Assembly (NCBI GenBank): GCA_964643685.1
Contig: CAZXTN010000007.1
Coordinates: 1-35,205, forward strand
DNA from: Candidatus Micrarchaeota archaeon
GTDB lineage: Archaea > B1Sed10-29 > JAJRYS01
Length of the DNA stretch: 35,205 nucleotides
Direction: 5' to 3'
Within the stretch, counting starts at the first letter, position 1, and every line of letters starts with the position of its first letter. Below, in pieces: positions 3,317 through 28,164 of the stretch. The translations under genes were made by a program, and so were the position numbers. A model generated the notes under the pieces. It worked only from the letters and a program-made list of their open reading frames with translations. It was not told the origin of the DNA and ran no database searches.

Positions 3317-6300
3317 TTATTTAATTAAATTAGCTTGTGACTGCTGGTTTGCATTCACTTGCTTGGTTTTCATTTTCTGCCTCAACTCTTCGTCGCAAAT
3401 CGGGCAGTATTCATGCTCACCTGCAATGTACCCGTGGATTGGGCAAATGCTGAACGTTGGAGTAATTGACAAGTAAGGCAAAGTGTACTTTTCAAACACT
3501 TTCTTGACAACTGTCTTAGCTGCATCCTTGTCAATTCTCTCTCCGAGGAAAGCATGGAACACTGTTCCGCCAGTGTATCTTGACTGAAGTGGGTCCTGGT
3601 TGTCAAGTATTTCAAACAAGTCGCCGCTCCAGCCGACAGGAGGTAAGCTTGAGTTAGTGTAATAAGGCTTGGCGTCATGCGCTCTGTAAGCTTGTTCATT
3701 AGCTACTATTATTTTAGGGTAATTTTTCTTGTCTATTCTAGCTAGCCTGTAAGTTGCTCCTTCAGCTGGACTTGCTTCTAAGTTGAACACATGCCCAGTT
3801 TCCTCTTGGTATTCAGCCAGCCTGTCTCTCATGAAATCCATGATTTTAATTGCAAACGCGTGGCCTTCAGGATTAGTCAAGTCAACACCCATGAAATTCA
3901 ACAATGCTTCGTTCATTCCAATCAAGCCGATTGTTGAAAAGTGGTTTTTCCAATACTCGTTGTACATGTCCTTGATTCCTCTCAAGTAAAATCTGGAGTA
4001 AGGGTACAATCCTTTTTCAGTGTAATGCTCGATGAATTTCCTTTTCAATTCAAGTGACTCCTTAGCCAAGTCCATTAAGTAAGATAATTTTTCAAAGAAT
4101 TTTTCCTCTGACTTTGACAAGTAGCCAATCTTAGGCAAGTTTATGGTGACAACACCTATGCTTCCTGTCAGAGGATTAGCTCCAAACAAGCCTCCTCCTC
4201 TTTTACGAAGCTCTCTTGTATCCAAACGCAGCCTACAGCACATGCTTCTTACGTCATCAGGGCTCATGTCACTGTTTATGAAGTTGGCAAAGTAAGGAAT
4301 GCCATATTTTCCAGTCATTTCCCAGATAGCATCCTGGTTTTCATTATCCCAGTCAAAATCCTTTGTAATGTTATAAGTTGGAATAGGGAAAGTGAATGGG
4401 CGTCCGCTTGCATCTCCTTCAAGCATCACTTCAGCAAAAGCGCGGTTAATCATGTCCATTTCATCTTGAAAACTGCCGTAAGTATCGTTAGTAATATTCC
4501 CGCCTATGATTGCCGGAAGGTTCTGCATGAACTTAGGCACTTTCAAATCCATTGTAATATTAGTGAAAGGAGTGTTTCCTGTGATGAAAACTTTGCCTTT
4601 TCTTCTTGCGATTATTGTTTCATTTTTTGTATGAGGGCACCAGATTACACCATCATAATCTACTTTTTTAATCTTCTGAATGTAAGTTTCAGAATGCTTG
4701 ATTAAGCGAAGCACAAAAATATCTTTTGTTCCTATTGTTGGTTTTCTAACAAGAGTGGTGAACCCGTATCCTGCATTCACTGCTATGATTTGCAAGGCGT
4801 CGAGAATTTCCCTGCTGGTAGTTGCAATTTTACTTTCTTCAAAACCATCTGCTTTCAAATAAGTTTCTAAAAACAGCTTGGATTGCTCTTGATTCAAGCC
4901 AAGGAGAATTGAAGGGATAAACTTAATTGTTTCCCTTGTTCCAAACCACTTGTGTACTTTCTTAGAACTTTCTGCATTCAGCCTCATTCTTCTAACAGGC
5001 TTTCCTAATCCAGTTGATTCAAATTCAGAGTAAGTTAATTTAAAATGATTCAATAATTTCTTGATTTCATTGTAGTGCTTTGAGTTTTTTTCTTTAGATT
5101 GGTAAATGGAAATCCTGTAACAACTCCTGTGATTAACTGGTTTTTCAACACTTCCTTCAGCAATAATCCATGCCATTAGCTTAATTTGTTCATCACTAAT
5201 TCCTGCTTTTTTGTTTGAATTTTCACCTGCAATTGGAATAATAAAAGGAGATTTTAGCTTGGCAACTTCTTCAATTGGTTCCAATACAAAAGAATCTGAA
5301 TTGAATAATTTTCTCACAACCCTATGTTTAGGTGAAATCAACTGATCCTGAATCCTGTTTTTTAAATTATACATCTTGCCCTTGTATCTTCTTTTAAAAA
5401 CATAAGTGACTTTCTGATCTTCAATTTTACCTGTTTTCAAGTTGAATGTTTTAATTGAACTGCCTTCATTAACCTCATCATAACTTTTCCAGCCTTCAGG
5501 AGTTAAAATTTCAGTGTCCTCAGAAACACATTGAAAACCGACACGAGTAGGCACATTCACATTGTAAATGAACTCCTGCATAGCCTGCTTTACTTCCTTG
5601 TAATCCATTTTGTCATAGGCTATGAAAGGAGCCAAGTAAGTGTCAAAATTAGAGAAAGCCTGCGCTCCAGCAGCTTCACCCTGCAAAGTATAGAAAAAAT
5701 TCACTATCTGCCCTAAAGCTGTTCTGAAATGTTTAGCTGGCTTAGAAGCTACTTTTCCAGGCACTCCCTTGAAACCGACGCTAAGCAAGTCCTGTAAGTC
5801 CCATCCAACGCAATAAGCAGCCAAGCTGCCCAAGTCATGAATGTGAAAATCACCCAGCTTATGCGCGTTTCCAATCTTGCTAGGATACAATTTATTCAGC
5901 CAATACTTGGCTACAAGCTCTGATGAAATGTGAAAATTCAATCCCTGCAGAGAGTAAGTCATGTTCGCATTTTCCTTGACTCTCCAGTCATTCTGGTTCA
6001 AATAAGCTTCCATTAAGTCAAAGTTGCCGAGCATGGAACTAAGTTCCCTCAAATCAGCGTGATTATGCCTGTAAAGAATGTAAGCCTTGGCTGTCTTAGC
6101 ATGCCCCTGTTCAATCAAGACTTTTTCAACAACATCCTGCACATCCTCTACATTAGGAATATTGTCATCATCAAAATTTTTTTCAAGTTCAGCAACGACA
6201 ATTTTAGTCAACTGCCTCGCTCTTTCAATGTCTCTGCCTCCAACAGCCCTAGCAGCTGCAAAAATGGCATTCACAATTCTTTCATCGTCAAAATCAACAA

Positions 6301-6334
6301 CAGTTCCGTCTCTTTTCTTAATTTTCGTCAACAT
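3317..6334 (-). CDS. nrdD: Anaerobic (class III) ribonucleoside-triphosphate reductase with N-terminal ATP cone and an intein; lacks the glycyl-radical loop
   Basis: IKKRDG ATP cone, HIHDL, SMCCRL finger loop, CPIH...CPIC zinc site. Start at 6334 or 6340 after GGAGGT. Confidence 0.95.
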   Translation of the reverse strand: MLTKIKKRDGTVVDFDDERIVNAIFAAARAVGGRDIERARQLTKIVVAELEKNFDDDNIPNVEDVQDVVEKVLIEQGHAKTAKAYILYRHNHADLRELSSMLGNFDLMEAYLNQNDWRVKENANMTYSLQGLNFHISSELVAKYWLNKLYPSKIGNAHKLGDFHIHDLGSLAAYCVGWDLQDLLSVGFKGVPGKVASKPAKHFRTALGQIVNFFYTLQGEAAGAQAFSNFDTYLAPFIAYDKMDYKEVKQAMQEFIYNVNVPTRVGFQCVSEDTEILTPEGWKSYDEVNEGSSIKTFNLKTGKIEDQKVTYVFKRRYKGKMYNLKNRIQDQLISPKHRVVRKLFNSDSFVLEPIEEVAKLKSPFIIPIAGENSNKKAGISDEQIKLMAWIIAEGSVEKPVNHRSCYRISIYQSKEKNSKHYNEIKKLLNHFKLTYSEFESTGLGKPVRRMRLNAESSKKVHKWFGTRETIKFIPSILLGLNQEQSKLFLETYLKADGFEESKIATTSREILDALQIIAVNAGYGFTTLVRKPTIGTKDIFVLRLIKHSETYIQKIKKVDYDGVIWCPHTKNETIIARRKGKVFITGNTPFTNITMDLKVPKFMQNLPAIIGGNITNDTYGSFQDEMDMINRAFAEVMLEGDASGRPFTFPIPTYNITKDFDWDNENQDAIWEMTGKYGIPYFANFINSDMSPDDVRSMCCRLRLDTRELRKRGGGLFGANPLTGSIGVVTINLPKIGYLSKSEEKFFEKLSYLMDLAKESLELKRKFIEHYTEKGLYPYSRFYLRGIKDMYNEYWKNHFSTIGLIGMNEALLNFMGVDLTNPEGHAFAIKIMDFMRDRLAEYQEETGHVFNLEASPAEGATYRLARIDKKNYPKIIVANEQAYRAHDAKPYYTNSSLPPVGWSGDLFEILDNQDPLQSRYTGGTVFHAFLGERIDKDAAKTVVKKVFEKYTLPYLSITPTFSICPIHGYIAGEHEYCPICDEELRQKMKTKQVNANQQSQANLIK
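4574..5530 (-). mobile_element. 319-aa intein with LAGLIDADG homing endonuclease, inside nrdD
   Basis: RVGFQ|CVSEDTEILTPEGWK ... KVFITGN|TPFTN. Cys1, block B SPKH, LAGLIDADG-like MAWIIAEGS and FLETYLKADG, terminal Asn, Thr+1. Confidence 0.93.
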
Positions 6335-6419
6335 CCTCATCCTACCTCCGCATAACAATACAAAAATGAAACAAAACCCCCCCTTGAAAAAATGAGAGTG
6401 ATATTTCAAACTCAAAAAA

Positions 6420-6440: not shown

Positions 6441-6633
6441 GAAAAATTAATTTGTTAATTTGCAAAAGTTAAAAAAGCTTATTTTTGCAATCTTTTTGCT
6501 GAAACAGATAAGCAGTTTGTTTAAAAACAATTAGCTTTTCTAATCTGCTTTTTTTATCTGATTGGTGTTGTTTTCTTTTAATTTTTTCAAAAAAACTGTT
6601 TTTTAAACAAGTATGCCCATTAATTATGCTTGT

Positions 6634-7374
6634 ATGGTGCTAGCTGAAAAAAGCAGTTTCAAAATTTACCAGAGGGTTTTTGACAAATACACTTTCAAAA
6701 GCCTTGCGAAGCTCGTGGATAAAAAATACTTCACTGTGCTTGATTTTCCAATCAGCACTGGAAAAGAAGCTGATGTCTACAAAGCCACTAAAATAAGCAA
6801 GGACAAAACTAAAGAGCCTGTGGCTGTTAAAATTTACAGGATTGAAACAAGCAATTTCAAGAAAATGCAGGAATACATGATAGGAGACCCTCGTTTTGAA
6901 AAAGTCAAAGGAACAAAAAGAGGAGTAGTTGAAGCATGGTGCAGGAAAGAACACAGGAACTTGAAAGACGCTTATGAAGCAGGAGTGAAAGTGCCTAAGC
7001 CAATTGCTTTTGAAAAAAACGTCCTAGTCATGGAGTTTATTGGAAAAAAAGACGGCTCCCCTTATCCTCTTTTAAAAGAAGCTGAAGTCAGAAACTGGAA
7101 AAAGCTGGTTGACAAGATTATCAGATACATTGAAGTTCTTTGGATAAAAGCAGGCATAGTTCACGGCGACTTGAATGAATACAACATAATAATGAAAAAC
7201 CAGTCTCCTGTTTTAATTGATATCGGCCAAGCCATGAGCATAAAGCACCCAATAGCACCTGAACTATTAAAAAGGGATTTAAACCAAATAAACAAGCTAG
7301 CTAAAAAGCACGGAGTAAAAATAAAAACCAATGAAGTATATAACAAGTTAACAAAGGATGTTGATTATGATTAA
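6634..7374 (+). CDS. rio1: RIO1 family atypical Ser/Thr kinase/ATPase (SSU biogenesis)
   Basis: ISTGKEADVY, AVKIYR, HGDLNEYNI, IDIGQA; start 6634 (or 6613); conserved neighbour of dim2-top6B-top6A. Confidence 0.93.
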   Translation: MVLAEKSSFKIYQRVFDKYTFKSLAKLVDKKYFTVLDFPISTGKEADVYKATKISKDKTKEPVAVKIYRIETSNFKKMQEYMIGDPRFEKVKGTKRGVVEAWCRKEHRNLKDAYEAGVKVPKPIAFEKNVLVMEFIGKKDGSPYPLLKEAEVRNWKKLVDKIIRYIEVLWIKAGIVHGDLNEYNIIMKNQSPVLIDIGQAMSIKHPIAPELLKRDLNQINKLAKKHGVKIKTNEVYNKLTKDVDYD

Positions 7375-8551
7375 AGCAGTTTTATTTGATGTAGATGGCA
7401 CAATAATCCCACTCGACTATGTAGTGGAAGGAATAAAAAAAACTTCTAAAAAAATGGGATTGAAAGAACTGACAAAAGAAGAAATTTACTCAAAAATAGT
7501 CGGACACACCTTGACTGAAAGGCTTAAAAACATTTACAAAAACCTTACAGACAAAGACGTTGAAAAATTCAGAAAAATTTACCATGAAGAATACAAAAAA
7601 ATAATTGAAAAACCCTTCCCAAACACAATAAGCACAATCAAAAAACTAAAACAAATGAACCTCAAAATAGGAATAGTTACAACCAAAAGCAGAGAAACAG
7701 CAACAGAAGCATTAAAAGAATCCAAAATACCATTCGAAGCCCTTGTAACAAGCAGCGACGTTGAAAACATCAAGCCATCACCAGAACCAGTGCTGAAAGC
7801 ATGCAAAAAACTCGGAGTAAAACCAGAAGAAGCAGTAATGATAGGAGACCACATATTCGACATGCAGTCAGCAAAAAACGCAGGAGCAACAGCAATTGGA
7901 GTAACAACAGGAGCAAGCACCAGACAAGAGCTTGAAAAAGAAGCAGATTACGTAATAGATGAAATAAGCGAAGCAATTGAAGTGATTGAAAAAATCAAGC
8001 AAAAACAAGATGAAGAACAGGAACTTGAAGAAACATTTGACATAATCAACATTCCAAAAGACAGAGTCGCTGTCCTCATAGGAAAAAAAGGAGAAACGAA
8101 AAAAGCAATTGAAAAACAAACAGACACGAAAATAGAAATCAGTTCAGACGGTGAAGTGATAATCAGAAGAAAAATAAACACCCAGGACCCCCTGAAGCAG
8201 CTGAAAGCGCATGAAATCATAAAAGCAATAGCAAGAGGATTCTCCCCTGAAAAAGCATTCAAGCTGCTGAAGCCTGAAAATTACCTGGAAATAATAAGCC
8301 TGACTGAACACGTTTCAGACAAAAGCCTTAAAAGAGTGCGTTCAAGAATAATAGGAAAAGAAGGCAAGGCAAGGAAATTCATCTCAAGGCTTACAAAAAC
8401 AGAAATAGTTATATATGGCAAAACAGTTTCTATAATAGGAAAAATTGAAAACAATCAAATTGCAAAAAAAGCAATCATGAAAATTGTTGAAGGAGCACCG
8501 CACAGTGCTGTTTTTAGGTTCCTGGAAAGGAACAGAATAAAAATAAAATAA
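7367..8551 (+). CDS. Fusion of a HAD-superfamily phosphatase (N-terminal) and the archaeal Dim2/Pno1 KH-domain rRNA-processing protein (C-terminal)
   Basis: HAD motifs FDVDGT, VTTKS, KPSP, IGDHIFD; acidic linker; KH motifs IPKDRVAVLIGKKG, AIARGFSPEKA, RIIGKEGK, GAPHSAV; single open frame. Confidence 0.9.
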   Translation: MIKAVLFDVDGTIIPLDYVVEGIKKTSKKMGLKELTKEEIYSKIVGHTLTERLKNIYKNLTDKDVEKFRKIYHEEYKKIIEKPFPNTISTIKKLKQMNLKIGIVTTKSRETATEALKESKIPFEALVTSSDVENIKPSPEPVLKACKKLGVKPEEAVMIGDHIFDMQSAKNAGATAIGVTTGASTRQELEKEADYVIDEISEAIEVIEKIKQKQDEEQELEETFDIINIPKDRVAVLIGKKGETKKAIEKQTDTKIEISSDGEVIIRRKINTQDPLKQLKAHEIIKAIARGFSPEKAFKLLKPENYLEIISLTEHVSDKSLKRVRSRIIGKEGKARKFISRLTKTEIVIYGKTVSIIGKIENNQIAKKAIMKIVEGAPHSAVFRFLERNRIKIK

Positions 8552-8608: not shown

Positions 8609-10240
8609 GTGGCGTTAAACTTGACAGAAGCAATCAACATACACAAAGGATTCAAAGAATACTCAGTAGCAGAATTCTTCAAAAAAAACAGGCAAATGCT
8701 CGGATACTCAGGAAAAATAAAATCCCTAACCACAGCAGTGCACGAATACGTGACAAACGGACTAGACGCCTGCGAAGAAGCAGGAATACTCCCAGACATA
8801 TACGTAAAACTAGAAAAACTAGGGCCAGACCACATAAAGCTAATTGTAGAAGACAACGGGCCAGGCATACCTAAAAAAATAGTAGGCAAAGCCTTCGGCT
8901 CAATGCTCGCAGGAACCAAATTCCACAGATTCCAACAAGCAAGAGGACAACAAGGAATAGGAGCAGCCGGAGTAATCATGTTCTCACAAGTCACAACAGG
9001 AAAACCAACAAAAATAATAACATCACAAGGAAACGGCGTAATCTACGAAACAAAACTATCAATAGACATCAAAGCAAACCAGCCGAAACTAGAAGACCAA
9101 AGAGAATACAGCGGCGAAATGAGAGGAGTGCGCCTAGAAAGCGAACTAAAAGGAGTCAAATACCAAAAAGGAGACTACTCAGTAGACGAATACCTCAGAA
9201 GAACAGCACTAGCAAACCCGCATGCAAAAATAACATACGTCGACCCAGACGGATTGACAACAGTCTACGACAGGGCAGATGCAAAACTGCCTAAAAAACC
9301 AAAATCAACAAAGCCGCACCCAAAAGGAATAGAAGTAGACGACTTACTAACATACGCTTCAGTTACAAAAGCAAGAACAGTGAAATCATTCCTAGTGAAC
9401 GAACTTTCAAGAATGAGCGTGGCAAAAGTAAAGGAAATAGAAGATAAAGTAAGCTTCGACATGAACAAGATCCCAAAAGAGTTAAGGTGGGACGAAGCAG
9501 AAGAAATAATCAAAGCAATCAAACAAATCAACTTCATAGCACCGCCAACAGACGTGCTAATACCAATAGGAGAAAAACAATTAGAAAAAGCAGTAGTCAA
9601 CGTAATCCAACCTGAATTCAAAACAATAATCACGCGTCCAGCTTCAGTGTACAGAGGAGGAGTGCCCTTCATAGTAGAAGTAGCACTTGCATTCGGAGGA
9701 AAAGCAGGCAAAAAAAATGCTGACGATAAAAACAGAATGGAAATAATGAGATTCGCAAACAGAGTGCCTTTGCTGTTCGACTCAGGAGGCTGCGCAATAA
9801 CAAAAGCAGTGCAGTCAGTAAACTTTAAAAAATACAAAATAAGCGACGACACTCCAATAACAGTAATGGTGAACTTCACATCAGTATACGTTCCATACAC
9901 AGGAGCAGGAAAAGAATCAATAGCAGACGAAGAAGAAATAATAAAAGAAATACGCCTAGCCTTAATGGACACAGGAAGAAGACTAGGAAGCTACGTCGCA
10001 GGAAAACTAAGAGAAGCTGAAAAAGAAAAAAAGAAAAGAAACCTCGAAATATACACTCCAATCGTAGCAGAAGCACTAGCAGACATACTAAAAAAAGATG
10101 AGAAAAAAATAGAAAACAAACTCAAAGAAATAATTGAAAAAAAATACAACGAAATCGAAGAAGAAACACCAGAAGAAAAAAAACTAGAAGAAGAGGAAGA
10201 AAAAGAAATAGAAGAACTTGAAAAAGAAGGACTCCTATAA
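8609..10240 (+). CDS. top6B: DNA topoisomerase VI subunit B
   Basis: SVAEFFKKN, HEYVTNGLDA, EDNGPGI, RGQQGIG (GHKL), RFANRVPLLF. Confidence 0.97.
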   Translation: MALNLTEAINIHKGFKEYSVAEFFKKNRQMLGYSGKIKSLTTAVHEYVTNGLDACEEAGILPDIYVKLEKLGPDHIKLIVEDNGPGIPKKIVGKAFGSMLAGTKFHRFQQARGQQGIGAAGVIMFSQVTTGKPTKIITSQGNGVIYETKLSIDIKANQPKLEDQREYSGEMRGVRLESELKGVKYQKGDYSVDEYLRRTALANPHAKITYVDPDGLTTVYDRADAKLPKKPKSTKPHPKGIEVDDLLTYASVTKARTVKSFLVNELSRMSVAKVKEIEDKVSFDMNKIPKELRWDEAEEIIKAIKQINFIAPPTDVLIPIGEKQLEKAVVNVIQPEFKTIITRPASVYRGGVPFIVEVALAFGGKAGKKNADDKNRMEIMRFANRVPLLFDSGGCAITKAVQSVNFKKYKISDDTPITVMVNFTSVYVPYTGAGKESIADEEEIIKEIRLALMDTGRRLGSYVAGKLREAEKEKKKRNLEIYTPIVAEALADILKKDEKKIENKLKEIIEKKYNEIEEETPEEKKLEEEEEKEIEELEKEGLL

Positions 10241-10256
10241 AAAAAAGTGATTGACA

Positions 10257-11375
10257 ATGGCAAAAAAAATTGAATCAGAAGAAATCAAGAAAAAAAGAGA
10301 ACAAAATGCAATGAAAAAAATAGAAGAACTCATGCTCGACATTGAAAAACAAATAGAAAGAGGAGAAGCGCCTGAATTCGAACTCCCATTAAGAGGAAGA
10401 GGAAACGCAGTATACAACCCAGACAAGAAAATGATACTAATGGGAGAAAAGAAAACAAGAAGAAAATTCCTAAACACAGCGCACACCAGGAAATTCGCGC
10501 AAACAATGCTAGTAGCAGAAGCAGCATACAACGAGTTATTAAAAAAAGGAAAAACAGGGACAATCAGGGACCTCTACTACAGCATACTAAGAACAATACC
10601 AGGCACCAAAATAAAAACAGTCGAAGACCAAAGAGAATCAGATGCAGTAAGCGTAGACCTCGAAGTAGCATTAGGGCTCTTAAGAGAAGACTTGAACCTA
10701 AAAGCAGAAAAAAACGGAGCAGTAGCAGGAAACGTAGTAATAGAAGACAGAGGAGACATAATCGACTGGAGCAAAATGGGCTCAGGAGGATGGGCAATAC
10801 CCTCAATGACAGGAGACATAGTATTCAAAGAAGTCAAAGCAGACTTCGTGCTATACGTAGAAAAAGCAGCTATCTGGGAACGTCTAAACGAAGACAAAGT
10901 ATGGAAAAAACTAAACTGCGTGCTCCTAGCAACGCAAGGACAAGCAACAAGAGGAGCAAGACTACTCCTAAGAAGACTAAGCGAAGAACACAACCTACCA
11001 GTATACGTATTCACAGACGCAGACCCATGGGGATGGTACATATACTCAGCAATCAAATATGGTTCAATGGCATTAAGCCACGCAACTGAAAAACTAGGAG
11101 TGCCAAAAGCAAAATTCATGGGAATGACAATGGAAGACATAGAAAAATACGGACTAGAAAAATACACAATCAAACTCACTCCACAAGACATAAAAAGAGC
11201 ACACGAAATAAGCAAATACCCATGGTTCCAATCAGAACAATGGCAAAAAGAAATACAAACAATACTAAAAAAAGGATACAAAGCAGAACTTCAAGCACTA
11301 TCAAAACACGGAATAGAATTCATCAGCGAAACATACATACCAGAAAAACTCAAGAAAAAAGAATACATAGAATAA
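10257..11375 (+). CDS. top6A: DNA topoisomerase VI subunit A
   Basis: TIRDLYY catalytic Tyr, Q.ESD, YVEK, FTDADPWG TOPRIM, KAELQAL. Confidence 0.97.
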   Translation: MAKKIESEEIKKKREQNAMKKIEELMLDIEKQIERGEAPEFELPLRGRGNAVYNPDKKMILMGEKKTRRKFLNTAHTRKFAQTMLVAEAAYNELLKKGKTGTIRDLYYSILRTIPGTKIKTVEDQRESDAVSVDLEVALGLLREDLNLKAEKNGAVAGNVVIEDRGDIIDWSKMGSGGWAIPSMTGDIVFKEVKADFVLYVEKAAIWERLNEDKVWKKLNCVLLATQGQATRGARLLLRRLSEEHNLPVYVFTDADPWGWYIYSAIKYGSMALSHATEKLGVPKAKFMGMTMEDIEKYGLEKYTIKLTPQDIKRAHEISKYPWFQSEQWQKEIQTILKKGYKAELQALSKHGIEFISETYIPEKLKKKEYIE

Positions 11376-11523: not shown

Positions 11524-11916
11524 ATGAAATACTTAACAGGCAAAACAAAAAAAGAACTGCTTGAAGAAATAGAAGCAATAAACACGCCATACCAAGAAAT
11601 ATACATCCCCCTCCGCCCAACAAACGAAATAATAAACAAAATACTTGAAAAAAACCAATACCTGAAAAAAATCACATGCCCACACAGTTTATACCTACAA
11701 GTATCAAAAAAAACATTCAAAAAACTAAGAGAAAAAAACATAAACATACAACCAGGAGACGTGCACGTAGGACGCCCAATGAAACACGACCCTGAACTAA
11801 TCAAAAGAATAATAAACGAAAAAGCAAACGGCAAGCCAGTTAAAAAAATAGCAGAAGACTACGACGTGCCAGTAAGAACAATATACTACTACTTAAAAAA
11901 CGGCTTAAACGAGTAA
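11524..11916 (+). CDS. DUF1699-like protein with C-terminal helix-turn-helix
   Basis: IYIPLRPTN...ITCPHSLY..VSK...GDV pattern resembles archaeal DUF1699; GRP...GKPVKKIAEDYDVPVRTIYYYL HTH; AGGTGA RBS. Confidence 0.7.
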   Translation: MKYLTGKTKKELLEEIEAINTPYQEIYIPLRPTNEIINKILEKNQYLKKITCPHSLYLQVSKKTFKKLREKNINIQPGDVHVGRPMKHDPELIKRIINEKANGKPVKKIAEDYDVPVRTIYYYLKNGLNE

Positions 11917-11933: not shown

Positions 11934-11972
11934 CCAAAACAAATACAAAAAACAACAAAATTAAAAAAAACT

Positions 11973-12046
11973 GCCCTGGTAGCTTAGTCCGGTAAAGCGT
12001 ACGGCTGTTAACCGTAAGACCGCCGGTTCAAATCCGGCCTGGGGCG
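11973..12046 (+). tRNA. tRNA-Asn (anticodon GTT), intronless, CCA not encoded
   Basis: Acceptor GCCCTGG/CTGGGGC, D arm GCTT/AAGC, anticodon arm TACGG-CTGTTAA-CCGTA, T arm GCCGG-TTCAAAT-CCGGC, discriminator G. Confidence 0.97.
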
Positions 12047-12365
12047 TTTTCTAAAAAAGAAAACAACTAAAAAAAGAAGCCACTGAGCAAAGCGAAAATG
12101 GCTTTAATTCTTTTAGTGCAGTTTTTCTTTTCTAAAGAAAAACGCTTGAGGCGACAGCCGATTAAGTTTTTCTTTTAAGAAAAAGTGCCGAAGATCCTGC
12201 CTGGGGCGCTACAAACTCTAAGAGTTTGTATCAGTGAGGCTATCTCAATCGCCTAATGGCTCAAACGTTTTTCTTGTAAAAAACAAGAAAAACTTCACTT
12301 TGTTCGATAGCCATGTTCAAGGCTCTTGCGAGCCTTGAAAAGGTTTTGCCTCTAACGAGGCAAAA
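12046..12365. repeat. Cluster of at least 7 short inverted repeats plus a second copy of the tRNA 3' end (12194-12208)
   Basis: Hairpins at 12046-12064, 12077-12104, 12121-12143, 12210-12230, 12267-12293, 12316-12339 and 12344-12365; ATCCTGCCTGGGGCG matches the tRNA's ATCCGGCCTGGGGCG at 14/15. Confidence 0.85.
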
Positions 12366-12438: not shown

Positions 12439-12777
12439 ATGCAGTCGTGGAGCAGAGTAGTAGCAGCAGTGACATTAATCTTCATACTAATAGGAATAGG
12501 TACTTTTGCTTACTCCCAACTAGAAGGATGGAACTTAATAGACTCCCTTTACTTCTCAACAACCACCTTGACTACAATCGGCTACGGCGACTTACATCCA
12601 ACCCATAACATTTCAAAACTATTCACAGCTGTTTACATAATAATAGGAGTAGCATTGACTCTAGTTGCATTAACTTCAATAGCCACTTACTTCTTTGAAA
12701 AAAATTACGAAAGAACAGCAGAAACAGTTGAAAAAAACATCTGGAACAAAATCAAAAGAAAAAAATACAGAATCTAA
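12439..12777 (+). CDS. Minimal 2-TM potassium channel (KcsA-like pore, no RCK domain)
   Basis: DSLYFSTTTLTTIGYGDLHP selectivity filter between two TM helices; GGAG RBS. Confidence 0.93.
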   Translation: MQSWSRVVAAVTLIFILIGIGTFAYSQLEGWNLIDSLYFSTTTLTTIGYGDLHPTHNISKLFTAVYIIIGVALTLVALTSIATYFFEKNYERTAETVEKNIWNKIKRKKYRI

Positions 12778-20805: not shown

Positions 20806-20884
20806 ATCTTCTTATTTTCTATTTAGTTATTTAAAAGAATTGTTTAAACAAAGCTTTTATTAAAAAAAAGTTATAATCTTGTTG

Positions 20885-22402
20885 ATGAAAAAAGAAGAAA
20901 CGTTGAATTTAGAAGAAAGATTATGGAAAACTGCTGATAAACTAAGAAATAGTATGGATGCTGCGGAGTACAAAAACGTTGTGCTCGGACTAATTTTTTT
21001 AAAGTACATCTCAGATAAGTTTAAAATTTTACATGACAAACTTGAAAAAGAAGAAAATGCAGATCCAGAGGATCCTGATGAATACAAAGCAGAAAATGCT
21101 TTCTGGGTGCCAAAAAAAGCAAGATGGGAGTACATTCAATCAAAAGCAAAACTACCTGAAATTGGAAAAATAATAGATGAAGCAATGGATGAAATAGAAA
21201 CAAAAAATCTTTCACTAAGAGGGATATTACCAAAGGATTATAACAGGCCAACACTTGATAAAAGAAAACTCGGCGAATTAATTGATTTAATAAGTACAAT
21301 TGGATTTGCAGATGAAAAAGAAATAGACTTACTTGGAAGAGTATATGAGTACTTCTTAGGAAAATTTGCAGATGCAGAAGGAAAAAGAGGAGGACAGTTC
21401 TACACTCCAGAAAGTATAGTAAAACTCTTAGTATACATGATAAGACCATACAAAGGAAGAGTATATGATCCATGTGCCGGTTCAGGGGGAATGTTTGTAC
21501 AATCAGAAAAGTTCATAAAAGCACACCAAGGAAAAATAAAAGAGATAAGCATTTACGGACAAGAAAGCAACCCAACAACCTGGAAACTCTGTAAAATGAA
21601 CTTAGCAATAAGAGGATTAGACAACTCACAAATAAAACTAGGAGACTCATTTCATGATGACCAACACAAAGACTTAAAAGCAGATTACATCCTAGCAAAC
21701 CCTCCTTTTAATGTTTCAGATTGGGGAGCAGAACACTTACAAAATGATGTGCGATGGAAATATGGAATTCCACCAAAAGGAAACGCTAACTTTGCATGGG
21801 TACAACACTTCATCCACCACTTATCACCAAAAGGAGTAGCTGGCTTTGTACTAGCAAACGGTTCAATGAGTTCAAACACTTCAAATGAAGGAGAAATTAG
21901 AAAAAAAATAATACAAGCAGATTTAATTGACTGTATTGTAGCTTTACCTTCTCAACTATTTTATAATACAATGATTCCAGCTTGTCTCTGGTTCATACGA
22001 AGAAGCAAAAACAAAAGGAAAGGAGAAATTTTGTTTATTGACGCTCGTAACATGGGACACATGATTAATCGTCGTAACAGAGAACTAAGCAAAGAGGATA
22101 TTTTAAAAATTTCTGACACTTATCATGCTTGGAGAGGGGAAGAAACAGAACAAAAAGACTTCGGAGAATACAAGGATATTCTTGGTTTTTGTAAAAGTGC
22201 AACACTTGAAGAAGTTGAAAAACAAGGCTTTGTCTTAACCCCTGGAAGATACGTTGGAATTCCAGAGGAAGAGGAAGACGAAAAAGAATTTGAAGAAAAA
22301 ATGAAAAAACTAACCTCACAGTTAGCTGAACAAATAAAAGAAGCACAAAAACTAGACCAAGAAATAAAGAAAAACCTAAAGGCGATTGGATTTGACTTAT
22401 AA
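20885..22402 (+). CDS. hsdM: Type I restriction-modification methyltransferase subunit M (m6A)
   Basis: [36 protein letters not shown]. Confidence 0.97.
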
Positions 22403-23195
22403 CATACAAGAAAATTTGAAAGGAAAAAAGCTTATAAGAGAGCATAATTTTAAACTAGTTTATGTTGGACCAAGTTTTGAGTCAGGAATTAAAATAAATT
22501 TTTTAGTTGAAAATCTAAAGGCTATTCATGAATTAGTTCATACAATAAATGAAATAGATTCAAAAGCTAAAAAAAATAAGATTAAAGAAATAAGAGTAAT
22601 ACCAAAAAAAGGAAGCATTGAAGAAGAAATAGTGATAATATTTTCTAATCCTGAAGTTAGATCAATGATAGTCAACATTATCATAGCTCTATTTTTTTAT
22701 TTAATAGGTAGAAGAGATAATGCTAAGAACAGAAAAGAGATTAAAGAGATGAATGAAAAATTAAATGAACTTATCTCATTAAATCAACTTAAAAACATTA
22801 AAGAGTTAACAAATCCCTTAGAACAAAAAAAAGATTCCCTAAAGATTATTGAAAATAACTCTACAAAACTTGAAGTAAACTATCAAAATAAAAAATTAAT
22901 AAATAAATCAATAAAAGAAATAGAAAAAGAGATCAAGAAAGAAGAAACTGAAGTTGAATTAGAAGGATATATCTCAGCTATGGATCTAGATACAAAAAGA
23001 TTAAAGTTCCATCCAAAAAATGATAAGAAAGCATATCCATTATCCTTCACACAACCACTTAAATTAATAATCCCTCTTCTTGGAAAAGAGATAAAAGCAA
23101 AGTTACGTGTAACAAAAATTAGAAGTAGGATAATAAAATTACACTTATTAGATTATAAATTATTACAAAGGGGACTAAATGAGTTTACAGAATAA
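22386..23195 (+). CDS. Hypothetical protein inserted between hsdM and hsdS
   Basis: 269-aa ORF overlapping both neighbours; central hydrophobic helix; start uncertain (TTG). Confidence 0.7.
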
Positions 23196-24423
23196 AACTA
23201 AATTTAAAAAAACTGAAATAGGATTAATTCCAGAAGATTGGGAAGTTAAAGGATTAAACAGTTTGGGAAAAGTAAGCACGGGCAAGGGAACAAAAAAATT
23301 ACTTCTCGGTAAATATAAAATAATCGGGTCTAATGGGGTTTTAGGGTATACTAACAACTATTTGGAAAATGATAACTTAATTTTTACAGGAAGAGTCGGC
23401 ACAATTGGTTCGGTAAATTTTCTTAAAAAAGAAAGAGTTTGGTTATCAGATAACACTTTATACTTTAAGACAGAAGATTTAGGATTGTTAAAATTTATTT
23501 ATTACTCATTGAAAAGAATTGACTTTTCTTATTTAAATGTAGGTAGCACTCAACCATTAATTAAACAGTCAGATTTTAGAAGATTAAAAATAGGTATTCC
23601 AACTCACAAAACAGAAATAAATGCTATTGTTAAGATTCTTTCTGATTTGGATGCTAAGATTGAGTTGTTGCAGAAGCAGAATGAAACCTTAGAAAAAATT
23701 GGTCAGGCGTTGTTTAAGCGTTGGTTTGTTGATTTTGAATTTCTTAATGAAGAAGGCAAGCCTTACAAATCTTCAGGCGGAAAAATGGTTTATAACAAAG
23801 AATTAGGAAAAGAGATTCCGAAAGGATGGGAAGTTTCAGAAGTAGGTAAAGAATTAAAAACTATTTTAGGTGGAACTCCTAGTAAAACAAGAAAAGAATA
23901 TTGGATTAATGGAACAATTCCTTGGATTAATTCAGGTGCATTAAATGCTTTTCCGGTTATGAATGCTTCACAATACATTACAAAAGAAGGGTTAAAAAAT
24001 TCTGCTGCAAAGCTTATGCCAAGAGGAACTATTGTTTTACCTTTTGTAATCTCTATTGGAAAAAAAGTGAATATTAGTATATTAGGTATAGACTCATCAG
24101 GAAATCAATCTGTTTTAGGGATATTAGAAAATAAGTTATTTTCATCAGCTTTTATTTACTATTGGATACAACATAAAAAACAGAAATTATACTTATCTGC
24201 AACAGGAGGAGCACAACAACACATTAACAAAAAAGAAGTTGATTCATTAGAATTATTAATTCCTTCAAAACAAGTTTTAATTGAATTTAATAATATCTCA
24301 ATGAAATTAATAAAAAAAATAATTTCAAATGCTGAACAAATTCAATCTCTTGAACAAATTCGTGATTCACTACTTCCAAAATTAATGACAGGAAAAATAA
24401 GGGTAAATTATGAAAAAGATTAA
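23179..24423 (+). CDS. hsdS: Type I restriction-modification specificity subunit S
   Basis: FKKTEIGLIPEDW / EIPKGW repeats, two TRDs, LDAKIELL conserved helix, RDSLLPKLMTGKIRV. Confidence 0.95.
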   Translation: MSLQNKTKFKKTEIGLIPEDWEVKGLNSLGKVSTGKGTKKLLLGKYKIIGSNGVLGYTNNYLENDNLIFTGRVGTIGSVNFLKKERVWLSDNTLYFKTEDLGLLKFIYYSLKRIDFSYLNVGSTQPLIKQSDFRRLKIGIPTHKTEINAIVKILSDLDAKIELLQKQNETLEKIGQALFKRWFVDFEFLNEEGKPYKSSGGKMVYNKELGKEIPKGWEVSEVGKELKTILGGTPSKTRKEYWINGTIPWINSGALNAFPVMNASQYITKEGLKNSAAKLMPRGTIVLPFVISIGKKVNISILGIDSSGNQSVLGILENKLFSSAFIYYWIQHKKQKLYLSATGGAQQHINKKEVDSLELLIPSKQVLIEFNNISMKLIKKIISNAEQIQSLEQIRDSLLPKLMTGKIRVNYEKD

Positions 24424-25054
24424 AGAGTTGATTTATGAAAAAGAGAGTTTTGGGGAGTTAAAACTACTTCTTATTCAATTGGAGAAATTTATAAAAGAGG
24501 ATAATTATAACGCTTCAATTGAAACTTCAAAGGCAGTTATTGAGTCCATTTGTAAAACAATATTAAAACAACTTAATATAAATATTCAAAAAAATATAAA
24601 GTTTCCAAAATTAGTTAAAATCGTTTTAAATAACTCCCCTTTTTTAAAAGAACTTGAAAAAGAGGATAAAGAGAGCACAAAAAAAATAATCGGTTCTATT
24701 TTAACACTTTCAAACTCAATCGCAAATCTAAGAAATAATTACAATTTTATTTCTCATGGACAAGGACCATCATTTAAATTATCAAATAAAAGAATAAGTG
24801 AATTATGCCTTCAATCAACTGAATTAATTGGCTCTTTTTTATTAGATATTCATTTAAACTATACCCCACCCTCTTATTATAATGAAGTTAGATATGAAGA
24901 TCATGAAGATTTTAACAGATGGTTTGATGAACAAAATAGCAATTTAAAAATTGGAAAATATGAGTTTTTACCTAGTAAGGTTTTATATACAGATATCGAA
25001 TTTTATAAACAAGAGTTACAATCTTTTAAAGAAAAGGGAGATTTTGTAATATGA
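24410..25054 (+). CDS. Abortive-infection (Abi_C, HEPN-related) family protein
   Basis: [13 protein letters not shown] and [14 protein letters not shown] motifs; embedded in the hsd operon. Confidence 0.75.
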
Positions 25055-28000
25055 CTAGTTTTGTAGTTGAGCAGGATATTGAAGATGCTGTTTTGGATAT
25101 TTTTCAAAGTGATTTGGGTTATTCTTATTATTTTGGTCCTGATATTTCACCTGATTCTGAAAATGCTTTAAGAAAAAGTTGGAGCGAGGTTATTTTAGAA
25201 TGGGAATTAAAAGAAGCAATTGAAAAGCTAAACCCTCAGTTAACAAGTGAAGTAATAGAAGAGGTAATTAAAAAAGTAAAAAGAATACCTTCACAAAATT
25301 TAATTGAAAACAATAAACACTTTCACAAGTTATTAGTAGAAGGAGTACCAATTTCTTATAGAAACAATGAAGGAAGAGTAGTTCATGATACTGCTAAATT
25401 GATAAGTGAGGATGTTGAAAAAAATAAGTTTACTGTAATTAATCAGTTTACCATTATTGAAAATGAAAAAAATAGGAGACCAGATTTAATTGTTTTTTTA
25501 AATGGTTTGCCAATAGCTGTTATTGAATTAAAAAACCCAATTAAAGAAAAAGCAAGTTTAACATCTGCTTATAAACAATTAGAAGTGTATAAAGAAGAGA
25601 TTTCAAGCTTGTTTAATTATAATGAGTTTTTAGTTATTTCAGATGGAACAAGTGCTAGGATTGGCACTATTACTTCTTCAAAAGAATGGTTTTTACCATG
25701 GAAGAGTTCAGAGGGTAAGACAATTGCTTCAAAAAAATTACCTCAACTTCCAGTGTTACTAGAAGGGGTTTTTAAGAAGAGCACTTTAATTGACTTGATT
25801 AAGTATTTTGTTGCTTTCAGTACTTCAGATAAAAAGGTTAGAAAGATTTTAGCTGGTTATCATCAGTATTATGCTACTAATAAAGCTATTAAGAGAACAA
25901 TTGAAGCTATTGGTAAGAGTAAAAAAGCAGGGGTTATTTGGCATACGCAGGGTTCTGGTAAATCTTTTACTCTTGCTTTTTATACTGGTAAATTACAACA
26001 AGAAGAAAAGTTAAAAAACCCGACTGTTGTTGTTTTAACTGATAGGAATGATTTAGATGACCAGTTATTTAATACTTTTTCTTCAATTGATTGTTTAAGA
26101 GAACCACCTGTACAAGCTAATTCAAAAGAGGAGCTAAAACAATTGCTTAAAAATCGCCCTTCTGGGGGGATTATTTTTGCGACTATTCAGAAGTTTGGAA
26201 CTGATGAAGGAAGTTTTGAGTTACTTTCTGATAGGAGTAATATTATTGTTGCTGCGGATGAAGCGCATAGGAGCCATTATGGTTTTAAAGCAAAAGTGGA
26301 TCAGAAAACAGGGGAGGTTAAGTATGGTTTTGCTAAGTACTTGAGGGATGCTTTACCTAATGCTACTTTTATTGGTTTTACTGGTACCCCAATTGATTTA
26401 AGTGATAGATCAACTCGTCTTATTTTTGGTGATTATATTGATGTTTATGATATTGAACAGTCAATTGAAGATGGTAGGACTGTTAAGATTTTTTATGAGT
26501 CAAGGCTTGCTAAGATTGGTTTAAATGAGAAGGAAATGGAGAAGTTAGATGAAGAACTTGAAGAAGTAACTGAAACAGAAGAGGAGGAAACAAAAGAAGA
26601 ATTGAAGTCGAAGTGGTCAAAGCTTGAGAAAATTGTTGGTTCTGATGAAAGATTAGAATTAATTGCTAAGGATTTAGTTAAGCATTTTGAAGAGAGACAA
26701 GAGGCAATGAATGGAAAAGCGATGTTTGTTGGGATGTCAAGAAGAATTTGTATTGAATTATATGAAAAGATTAAGAAGTTGAGACCTGAGTGGGTTAATG
26801 AAGAAGATGATTCAAAAGGTTTAATGAAGGTTGTTATTACTGGTTCTGCTGCTGATGGTAAAGAATGGCAGAAGCACATTAGAGATAAGAGAAGAAGGAG
26901 AGAATTAGGTGAACTTTTTAAGGATCCTTCTTCTGAGTTTAAGTTAGCTATTGTTAGGGATATGTGGCTTACTGGTTTTGATGTTCCTTCTTTGAATACT
27001 CTTTATGTTGATAAGCCTATGAAGGGACATGGTTTAATGCAGGCAATTGCTAGAGTTAATAGAGTTTATAAAGATAAACAAGGTGGTTTGATTGTTGATT
27101 ATATTGGAATTGCACCTGATTTGAAAACTGCTTTAGCAATTTACAGTAAAAGTAATGGTAGAGGCAGGTTAGTTGTTAATCAGGAAGAGGCTATTTCTGT
27201 TTTACTTGAAAAGTATGAAGTTGTAAGTCAAATGTTCCATGGTTTTAATTATAAAAAGTTCTTTGAAGGTTCTCCTAGAGAAAAAATGGAGATTATTCCT
27301 GAAGCTATAGATTTTATTTTGAGTAAAAAAGAGGGTAAGAAGAGGTTTATTAGGGAAGTTACTGCTTTGACTCGTGCTTATTCACTAGCAGTTCCTAGTA
27401 AAGAAGCTAGTGAAATAAGGGAGGATATTGGTTTTTTCCAAGCTATAAAAACAGCTATTATTAAAACAACTGAGGTTGAAAAGGAGGGAAAATCAGTTGA
27501 AGAAATGGATACTATTATGAAGCAACTTGTTTCAAAAGCAATAACAGGTGTTGGAGTTATTGATGTTTTTAAGTTTGCTGGGCTTGAAAAACCAGATCTT
27601 TCAATTCTTTCAGATGAATTTTTAGAAGAAGTTCAAAATGTAAAATACAAAAACTTAACTTTTGAAACACTCAGAAAGTTACTGAATGATGAAATTAAAG
27701 TGAGATTTAGAAAGAATAAAGTGAAGAGAGATAAGTTTTCTGAATTAATTAAAAAAGCTGTTTTGAAATATGAAAATAGAAATATTGATTCAGCAATGGT
27801 GATAAAAGAACTTGTTGAAATAGCTCATAAAATAAAAGAAGAAAAGAGCAAAGGAGAAGAGTTAGGTTTATCAGAAGAAGAGGAAGCATTTTATGATGCT
27901 CTTGCTAACAATGAATCAGCAAAAGAAATTTTAGGAGAGAGTATTTTGATTATGCTTGCTAGGGAAATTTCAAAAACAATAAGAGAAAATGCAACAATTG

Positions 28001-28164
28001 ATTGGACTTTACGAGAAAATGTACAAGCAAAACTAAGGGTGATGGTAAAAAGACTCTTAAAAAAATATGGCTACCCCCCAGACAAAAGAAAAATGGCGGT
28101 GGAGCTTGTTTTAAAACAAGCAGAAGAACAAGCAAAAGAAGAATCAGTTAGTAAAATGAACTAA
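25051..28164 (+). CDS. hsdR: Type I restriction endonuclease subunit R
   Basis: [56 protein letters not shown]. Confidence 0.97.

Follow-up and report, generated by a model that had tools for sequence, protein, structure and literature searches.

A gene encoding a HAD-family phosphatase fused in one continuous frame to the ribosome-biogenesis factor Dim2/Pno1 was identified in a Candidatus Micrarchaeota archaeon, downstream of the gene for the RIO-type kinase/ATPase Rio1. The gene lies in the window, i.e., the whole stretch of DNA that was analysed, CAZXTN010000007.1 positions 1-35,205 (35,205 nucleotides, nt), which belongs to a genome of 695,104 bases in 12 contigs that is 91.75% complete (hereafter G000). 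Its small size at this completeness suggests a DPANN-like archaeon. It represents a real, recurrent fusion of two known families within an order-specific version of a conserved archaeal gene cluster. The single HAD-Dim2 frame of the window is confirmed as real, and the analysis below deals with its two modules, its distribution and origin, and what joining them may mean.

The fusion gene occupies 7367..8551 (+) as an uninterrupted open reading frame (ORF) with Pfam and NCBIfam matches, and encodes 394 amino acids (aa) followed by a stop; motif positions are given in this 394-aa numbering. The whole open frame is 7358..8551 (+) and would yield 397 aa if the upstream ATG at 7358 were used, while the form entered in public protein collections, P0001, has 394 aa and starts at ATG 7367. 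On inspection of the window sequence, neither a stop nor a frameshift was found at the HAD-Dim2 junction. Upstream, rio1 (6613..7374, +) encodes 253 aa with a RIO1 domain (PF01163, Pfam E 7.2e-57, residues 54-238); its top NCBIfam model, Rio1, scores 241 bits, under the cut-off of 480 of what is a haloarchaeal equivalog model. The ATG of the fusion gene overlaps the rio1 TAA (7372-7374) within the sequence ATGATTAA. Downstream, 57 nt past the fusion stop, top6B (8609..10240, +; Topo-VIb_trans E 1.7e-53, HATPase_c) is followed by top6A (10251..11375, +; TOP6A-Spo11_Toprim E 8e-61, TP6A_N), the final gene of the cluster. A first-pass annotation, made from the sequence alone, had described one 394-aa frame with HAD first and Dim2 second, a HAD domain with all four motifs, an acidic linker string, a complete Dim2 and a start overlapping the rio1 stop, and each of these descriptions agrees with the results given here and below.

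The junction is supported by independent sequence. Five hydrothermal-vent metagenome runs, and no RNA run among those listed, contain the stretch, two of the five possibly being the window's own source. As the evidence from these runs consists of contigs, it proves that the sequence is present but does not exclude minor variants. Contigs of runs X3 (7927-8077) and X5 (7832-8100) span the junction, including the interval 7980-8050 that the first-pass annotation had singled out for verification, with 0 differences, no indels and no stop. A contig of run X4 covers 7617-8017 with 0 differences, and one of run X1, possibly a source, has a word depth of 73.6 and no variant; the only variant listed is C>T at 8242.

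Proteins of the same architecture were found in other assemblies. When 5.8 billion proteins of 218-695 aa were searched through a word index, with scores taken over the Dim2 part, 59 matches were obtained out of 814 candidates: five HAD+KH proteins (P0001-P0005, 391-404 aa), 22 Dim2-only proteins (220-268 aa) and 32 irrelevant vertebrate KH proteins. None of the match clusters of this search is named in any source. P0001-P0005 are five 90%-identity clusters of the G000 type from several sources, and the four besides P0001 come from other assemblies and are 63-73% identical to G000; P0060 is a further fused cluster. HMMER, run exhaustively against 1.84 billion representatives clustered at 50% identity, returned 36,090 proteins at E <= 0.001, and among the best 150 of these 36,090 two match over their full length, P0004 (67% identity) and P0060 (45%). 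P0072, which matched in two stretches, was rejected as a HAD-Dim2 protein because it is a tandem HAD-HAD, and a search of genome contigs for related loci gave two loci, both HAD only. With clusters P0002-P0005, P0060 and further genomes fused, the fusion is not unique to this assembly, a possibility that had been raised, and it is not an artefact.

To place the fusion in its genomic context, all 18 species genomes of the order were examined, plus 13 loci from other orders and classes. One continuous HAD-Dim2 frame is present in seven genomes, namely G000 and all six of family f3 (G006, G012, G014, G015, G016 and G017; in the last, the contig stops at query residue 322, beyond the junction). 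HAD and dim2 are separate and adjacent in nine genomes: G001-G004, which belong to f1, the family of G000, and G005, G008, G009, G011 and G013. In G010, rio1 and HAD are adjacent and dim2 lies 3 kb away on the other strand, while G007 carries rio1-dim2-top6B-top6A without HAD, and the best other HAD match in its genome has 32% identity. Of the 17 genomes with the HAD, 16 (all but G002) have rio1 on the same strand no more than ~550 nt upstream. In the 13 outgroup loci the cluster never contains a HAD. Eleven of them have rio1 upstream, and one of the two that do not is truncated by the end of its contig; top6B comes straight after dim2 in 11 loci as well, in keeping with the first-pass statement that the rio1-dim2-top6B-top6A cluster is conserved in archaea. 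The cluster itself is old and widespread, and the HAD, present in 17 of the 18 genomes of the order and in none of the 13 outgroup loci, was inserted into it specifically in this order. An excerpt of PMC5007285 likewise describes the clustering of RIO genes with KH-domain genes as conserved in archaea.

Several further features of these loci were recorded. No Pfam match was obtained for the ORFs located between rio1 and dim2 in the outgroup loci L031 and L032 or for those in the spacer of G005. Two long open frames were considered as fusions and rejected: the 524-aa frame of G005, in which direct translation revealed several stops in the spacer, and the 430-aa frame of G007, in which rio1 ends with TAG before a GTG-initiated dim2. 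The f3 loci (L003, L005-L008 and L010) have a spacer of 250-530 nt between rio1 and the fused gene, where G000 has an overlap. G014 carries two full-length fusion copies (G014:C2:10523-11683 and G014:C22:3573-4733), each 45% identical to the query, which may reflect a genuine duplication or the binning of two strains into one genome. A literature search that covered papers and not their supplementary files found no description of a HAD-Dim2/Pno1 fusion, as the first-pass annotation had supposed, nor of a HAD within the rio1-dim2 cluster.

The HAD phosphatase module comprises residues 1-199 (7367..7963, +), with a HAD_2 match, motifs I-IV and a Rossmann-like core. The HAD_2 (PF13419) match scores 141.9 bits against a Pfam cut-off of 23.8 and covers residues 8-182 and the complete profile (1-178 of 178). 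The motifs are DVDGT (8-12), VTTKS (104-108), IKPSPEP (135-141) and GDHIFD (160-165); all four are kept in 22/22 cluster-linked HADs, fused or split, and judged by these motifs the HAD appears catalytically intact. In the AlphaFold2 (AF2) model, helices 17-29, 37-43, 49-56 and 62-77 come after strand 4-7, which places a four-helix C1 cap (approximately residues 14-77; 7406-7597, +) after motif I; the same cap, about 60 residues long, is seen in the model of the G012 protein. The HAD half is therefore a HAD_2 family member with a C1 cap, and assignment to the capless C0 class (FCP/SCP-type, PNKP-type) was rejected because of this cap. According to an excerpt of PMC11164532, capless C0 HADs take macromolecules, and most C1 and C2 enzymes act on small molecules.

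A Foldseek search of the HAD half against the PDB retrieved 3s6j, 2hsz, 4ex7, 3d6j, 4uar, 3qu2 and 2nyv at TMt 0.77-0.86, with identities to solved structures of 22-29%. These neighbours include a Pseudomonas hydrolase (3s6j), the phosphoglycolate-phosphatase-like 2hsz and 2nyv, AlnB, CbbY, the BT2127 pyrophosphatase and beta-phosphoglucomutase; the phosphatase domain of MtlD matched at TMt 0.26-0.27, a low value because it is one domain of a ~690-residue chain. Among the matches listed, all structural neighbours are C1-capped small-molecule phosphatases, and none is a protein or polynucleotide phosphatase. The window HAD has its motifs, Rossmann-like core and four-helix cap in common with C1-capped phosphatases (2nyv and 2yy6, the Aquifex phosphoglycolate phosphatase; 3qu2, BT2127; PpaX; beta-phosphoglucomutase; CbbY; AlnB), but, unlike it, none of those listed is fused to an RNA-binding protein. 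Membership in the PpaX and phosphoglycolate phosphatase equivalogs was rejected, since the scores stay below the curated cut-offs (PpaX NF009804, 152 vs 218; phosphoglycolate phosphatase NF009695, 112.6 vs 225, and TIGR01449, 84.5 vs 180). The HAD was also rejected as the sole pyrophosphatase of the cell, given a family I pyrophosphatase at G000:C1:159245-159706 (183.9 bits); an H+-PPase was not found in the 91.75% complete G000. Altogether, the modelled fold and its neighbours suggest that the substrate is a small phosphorylated metabolite of the sugar phosphate, phosphoglycolate, nucleotide or inorganic pyrophosphate class.

The Dim2/Pno1-type module follows at residues 221-394 (8027..8548, +) and consists of two KH domains, matched by Pfam KH_1, KH_KRR1_2nd and KH_PNO1_2nd over residues 230-388. 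Their GXXG loops are GKKG at 239-242 (8081-8092, +) and GKEG at 330-333 (8354-8365, +). The NCBIfam model TIGR03665 (arCOG04150) scores 195.2 bits against a cut-off of 114.2 over residues 230-396 and model positions 2-168 of 173. By score, fold, GXXG loops and synteny, the C-terminal half is an archaeal Dim2 and a member of arCOG04150. aDim2p of Pyrococcus horikoshii (PH1566) matches residues 221-394 over its full length (E 4.4e-48, 51-53% identity), and Foldseek retrieved the aDim2p structures 3aev_B (TMt 0.92, root-mean-square deviation 1.4) and 2e3u (TMt 0.94). The two GXXG-bearing KH domains are common to aDim2p and the window Dim2, and the synteny, with rio1 before and top6B after, is that of other archaea. 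As 3aev is a complex of aDim2p with a/eIF2alpha and rRNA, the Dim2 half probably binds, by homology, the 16S rRNA 3' region or the pre-30S. Stand-alone Dim2 proteins have ~165-230 aa, consistent with the first-pass view that Dim2 is normally a separate protein of ~180 aa, whereas the window Dim2 is the C-terminal half of 394 aa.

Eukaryotic Pno1 has the same KH fold (6g18_x, TMt 0.84) and carries residues N-terminal to KH1, the 6g18_x match beginning at chain residue 116, so the N-terminus of this protein tolerates an appendage. The eukaryotic extension is not an enzyme. Partners of Pno1 are present in G000 too: rio1 adjoins the fusion gene, and a Nob1-type PIN_6 domain lies at G000:C5:33607-33870. 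Excerpts of PMC4231747 and PMC6934326 describe eukaryotic Pno1/Dim2 as working alongside Nob1 and Rio1 in the final stage of 40S maturation.

The two modules are connected by a K/E/Q-rich linker at residues 200-220 (7964..8026, +), predicted by AF2 to be helical; the string KQKQDEEQELEE corresponds to residues 211-222 (nt 7997-8032). In the G000 model (142-row alignment; mean predicted local distance difference test score, pLDDT, 95.3; predicted template modelling score, pTM, 0.78), the last HAD helix continues as a single helix 200-220 straight into KH strand 222-228, with linker blocks at pLDDT 86-97. The model of the f3 protein of G012 (108-row alignment; mean pLDDT 94.1, pTM 0.78) has an 8-residue final helix (206-213), ~5 further residues and then KH strand 219-225. 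The pTM of both models could in principle reflect a fixed arrangement of the two modules relative to each other.

Tight packing of the cluster offers a simple route to the fusion. The spacing between the end of the HAD stop and the Dim2 start codon is -22 to +21 nt in eight of the nine split genomes, three of which have an ATGA overlap; G005 (+354 nt) is the exception. Of the genomes sampled, G001 gives the best full-length match to G000; its HAD TAA directly abuts the in-frame ATG of Dim2, so a single substitution would fuse the two genes. In G007 (L016:3072-4289), the rio1 TAG directly precedes the GTG of dim2, again in the same frame, one substitution away from a Rio1-Dim2 fusion, and exactly such a fusion is found in P0120, a 449-aa protein of one metagenome cluster with a RIO domain and two KH domains. 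The G007 arrangement and P0120 together indicate a tendency of dim2 to become fused to its upstream neighbour, whichever gene that is.

Marker trees were computed by quick search from trait-free neighbours, Top6B alone and Rio1 plus Top6B. The Top6B tree (21 rows; G008, G010 and G017 were left out, having no single long Top6B match) unites G000 and the four split members of its family in one clade, with a Shimodaira-Hasegawa-like approximate likelihood ratio test (SH-aLRT) support of 95. The Rio1+Top6B tree (742 columns; G002 and G018 without the Rio1 part) recovers the same clade with an SH-aLRT of 98, and the f3 fusions form their own clade (100). Constraining all fused genomes together in the Rio1+Top6B tree gave a log-likelihood difference of 21.6 and a marginal rejection in the approximately unbiased (AU) test (p-AU 0.034), and with Top6B alone a single fused clade is not rejected by this test (p-AU 0.114). 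The HAD+Dim2 gene tree (21 rows, without the truncated G017) contains two fused clades with 100/100 support each on an unresolved backbone. The junctions also differ: G000-type linkers (P0002-P0005) are K/E/Q-rich, variable in length and up to ~17 residues longer than the joined G001 ends, and f3 junctions are short and of fixed length. On the basis of the trait-free marker trees and the differing junction structures, two independent fusions appear the most parsimonious scenario.

HAD domains are promiscuous in these genomes. G000 has two HAD_2 genes, the other one encoding a 660-aa HAD-PGM/PMM fusion (L013:2180-4162; HAD part at G000:C1:46685-47320), and the PGM/PMM-linked HAD is 41-42% identical to the Dim2-linked HAD. 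Other fusions of related HADs among the matches are SET-HAD P0116 (383 aa) and the HAD-HAD protein P0072 (370 aa). Like the window fusion, P0120 and HAD-PGM/PMM each join an upstream gene to its downstream neighbour in a compact archaeal genome. P0120 demonstrates that the Dim2 N-terminus accepts a whole enzyme, although Rio1 is a known partner of Dim2 and HAD is not. HAD-PGM/PMM shows the HAD N-terminal to another enzyme, but with an obvious sugar-phosphate context that has no equivalent for the Dim2-linked HAD. Since HAD is split from dim2 in 9 of the 16 adjacent-or-fused genomes and a PGM/PMM fusion exists as well, the inference from fusion to mechanism is weakened. The HAD-PGM/PMM architecture also occurs in P0070, a 659-aa metagenome protein. 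A Candidatus Aenigmatarchaeota metagenome-assembled genome (L039:1492-3599) has a stand-alone HAD of 212 aa, 43% identical to the window HAD, that overlaps the start of metG by 4 nt and is another case of such a HAD preceding a translation gene, here that of methionyl-tRNA synthetase.

The reading that we favour, and to which we give about an even chance, is that two independent modules were joined by stop loss into a tolerated two-module protein whose enzyme works on a small metabolite. A stop codon would have been lost between tightly packed, translationally coupled genes of the order-specific rio1-HAD-dim2-top6B-top6A cluster. The C-terminal half would be an ordinary Dim2 that, like aDim2p and Pno1, binds the 16S 3' region of the small subunit under assembly and works together with Nob1 and Rio1, and the N-terminal HAD phosphomonoesterase would hydrolyse a small phosphorylated metabolite. 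Both modules would fold and work independently; the fusion would fix their 1:1 co-production and tether the enzyme to Dim2 via a helical spacer, and the HAD would act neither on Rio1 nor on rRNA ends. A neutral stop-loss origin in a compact operon explains everything seen.

A number of observations nevertheless weigh against this reading. In 16 of the 17 genomes with the HAD, spread over eight families of the order, HAD and dim2 remain neighbours, usually with stop and start overlapping or abutting, and the pair was probably fused twice, which by Rosetta-stone logic hints at a link between the partners. The HAD of G010 stayed beside rio1 when dim2 moved, and G007 has neither a cluster HAD nor a close HAD elsewhere, so the HAD seems bound up with the cluster and not with general metabolism. 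The catalytic motifs are intact in both fused clades, which suggests that the HAD is under selection while tethered to Dim2. As for the substrate, the HAD matches no substrate-specific model above cut-off among those tried (PpaX, phosphoglycolate phosphatase), and the cap rule speaks of most enzymes, not all: EYA-type protein phosphatases carry an inserted helical cap. Furthermore, the rejection of a single fusion event is marginal.

Alternatively, the HAD could be a lineage-specific cofactor of small-subunit maturation, recruited to the rio1-dim2 operon at the base of the order and acting at the pre-30S with Rio1 and Dim2, an explanation that we consider possible and on balance doubtful. Such a HAD might turn over a small phosphorylated ligand or product, or gate Dim2 release, and the fusion would then formalise a prior partnership. 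The conserved rio1-HAD-dim2 order, absent from 13/13 outgroup loci, argues for this, as do the tight stop/start coupling in 8/9 split genomes, the probable double fusion, the retention of rio1-HAD in G010 together with the lack of a close HAD in G007, and the intact motifs in 22/22 HADs; moreover, the known partner Rio1 is fused to Dim2 in P0120, so fusion to Dim2 can mark a real partner. A loose precedent comes from Bacillus and other Firmicutes, where yqeG, a HAD-type hydrolase of a different subfamily, shares an operon with the 30S-assembly GTPase gene yqeH and the gene for the RNA-binding YqeI. Like the window HAD, it is a phosphatase-like hydrolase conserved beside small-subunit assembly genes, but it is bacterial and not fused, and the comparison is an analogy only. 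In an excerpt of PMC3814617, yqeG is grouped with yqeH and yqeI in a cluster of "RNA metabolism flavour".

Against a maturation cofactor, the data reported here hold no direct sign of interaction or of ribosome-related activity, and the C1 cap and small-molecule neighbours provide no link to an RNA or protein substrate. The junction geometry differs between the two fusion clades, which speaks against a precisely positioned active site, and HAD domains fuse promiscuously in these genomes. The cluster also carries top6B and top6A, genes that have been part of it for far longer than the HAD and for which we know of no functional link to dim2 or ribosome assembly, so the conserved gene order need not mean a shared pathway. 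A more specific form of the cofactor idea, which we regard as rather unlikely, would have an order-specific assembly cofactor tethered to Dim2 at the nascent 16S 3' end, with its catalytic cycle (on a metabolite or, exceptionally, on phospho-Rio1) coupled to Rio1-driven release of Dim2 and Nob1. If true, a host-dependent archaeon of minimal genome size would be tying the final licensing of its small subunits to its phosphate or metabolite status.

The first-pass annotation had gone further and proposed that the tethered HAD dephosphorylates autophosphorylated Rio1, forming a kinase-phosphatase switch, or removes a terminal phosphate from pre-rRNA. HAD enzymes do include protein and polynucleotide phosphatases, and the rio1 and fusion genes adjoin and overlap. 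In addition, archaeal RIO-type enzymes autophosphorylate, as stated in an excerpt of PMC5007285. Nevertheless, macromolecules are the domain of capless C0 HADs in the excerpted text of PMC11164532, and the enzyme considered here has a full C1 cap. This cap and the small-molecule phosphatases among its neighbours, with no protein or polynucleotide phosphatase in the Foldseek matches listed, argue against phospho-Rio1 or an RNA end as substrate. Cleavage by Nob1-type PIN nucleases gives mature rRNA a 3'-OH terminus, and in that case there would be no 3'-phosphate to remove. We therefore see very little room for either half of this proposal.

A further alternative, also raised in the first-pass annotation, is that Dim2 is additionally or mainly translated alone from an internal start. 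The junction of G000 contains a single in-frame start-type codon, GTG 7982 (residue 206 of 394), located 23 codons before the IPKDR motif, and in several f3 fusions an ATG or GTG occurs in frame no further than 40 codons from the junction. However, none of the seven fused loci shares an in-frame ATG, GTG or TTG conserved in position near the junction, and G012 has none of these codons in the 46 examined. The junction stretch of G000 also lacks a Shine-Dalgarno-like motif, unlike the split f1 relatives, which have GGAG or GGTG 8-12 nt upstream of the Dim2 ATG, and the linker is modelled as a confident continuous helix. Judging from these signals, separate translation of Dim2, for instance from GTG 7982, is unlikely. 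Finally, it is hardly credible that a sequencing or assembly error erased a stop or frameshift between two genes: one wrong base could mimic a fusion where, as in G001, a single same-frame stop divides the pair, but contigs of X3 and X5 span the whole junction with 0 differences and X4 covers part of it, four more fused clusters come from other assemblies, and simply reading through the G001 junction would give a linker up to 17 residues shorter than that of G000.

The window carries other features outside the cluster. Directly past top6A, a 130-aa protein (11524-11916, +) has weak DUF1699 and helix-turn-helix matches, all below cut-off, and is followed by a tRNA-Asn (GTT) gene at 11972-12047 (+). 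A 112-aa protein at 12439-12777 (+) is of the minimal two-helix potassium-channel type (Ion_trans_2 E 7.5e-20), with the filter sequence TTIGYGD and no attached regulatory domain. Upstream of rio1 on the opposite strand, 3317-6415 (-) encodes an anaerobic ribonucleotide reductase NrdD with an ATP-cone (1032 aa), in which the NRDD profile matches two stretches flanking an insert of ~300 residues; the insert begins with Cys and ends with Gly-Asn before Thr, and resembles an intein with a penultimate Gly instead of His. A complete type I restriction-modification system at 20879-28164 (+) takes up about one fifth of the window in a 0.7 Mb genome and consists of hsdM (20879-22402, +), an ORF (22386-23195, +), hsdS (23179-24423, +), a further ORF (24410-25054, +) and hsdR (25051-28164, +).

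Small-subunit maturation ends with a conserved checkpoint made up of Dim2/Pno1, Nob1 and Rio1. To our knowledge, this last step is poorly understood in archaea, and we know of no lineage-specific accessory enzymes acting in it. The HAD-Dim2 fusion, from an order of tiny vent archaea, may represent an enzyme linked to ribosome assembly, and it offers a concrete and cheap test of a tethered phosphatase in archaeal 30S maturation. If the link is not functional, the fusion provides a clean, well-sampled case of overlapping or abutting genes giving rise to multidomain proteins in compact genomes via single stop-codon changes, and a warning against deducing mechanism from fusions of promiscuous domains. 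If it is functional, the HAD would be a new archaeal assembly cofactor with a simple experimental handle, namely a tethered enzyme with a mutable nucleophile.

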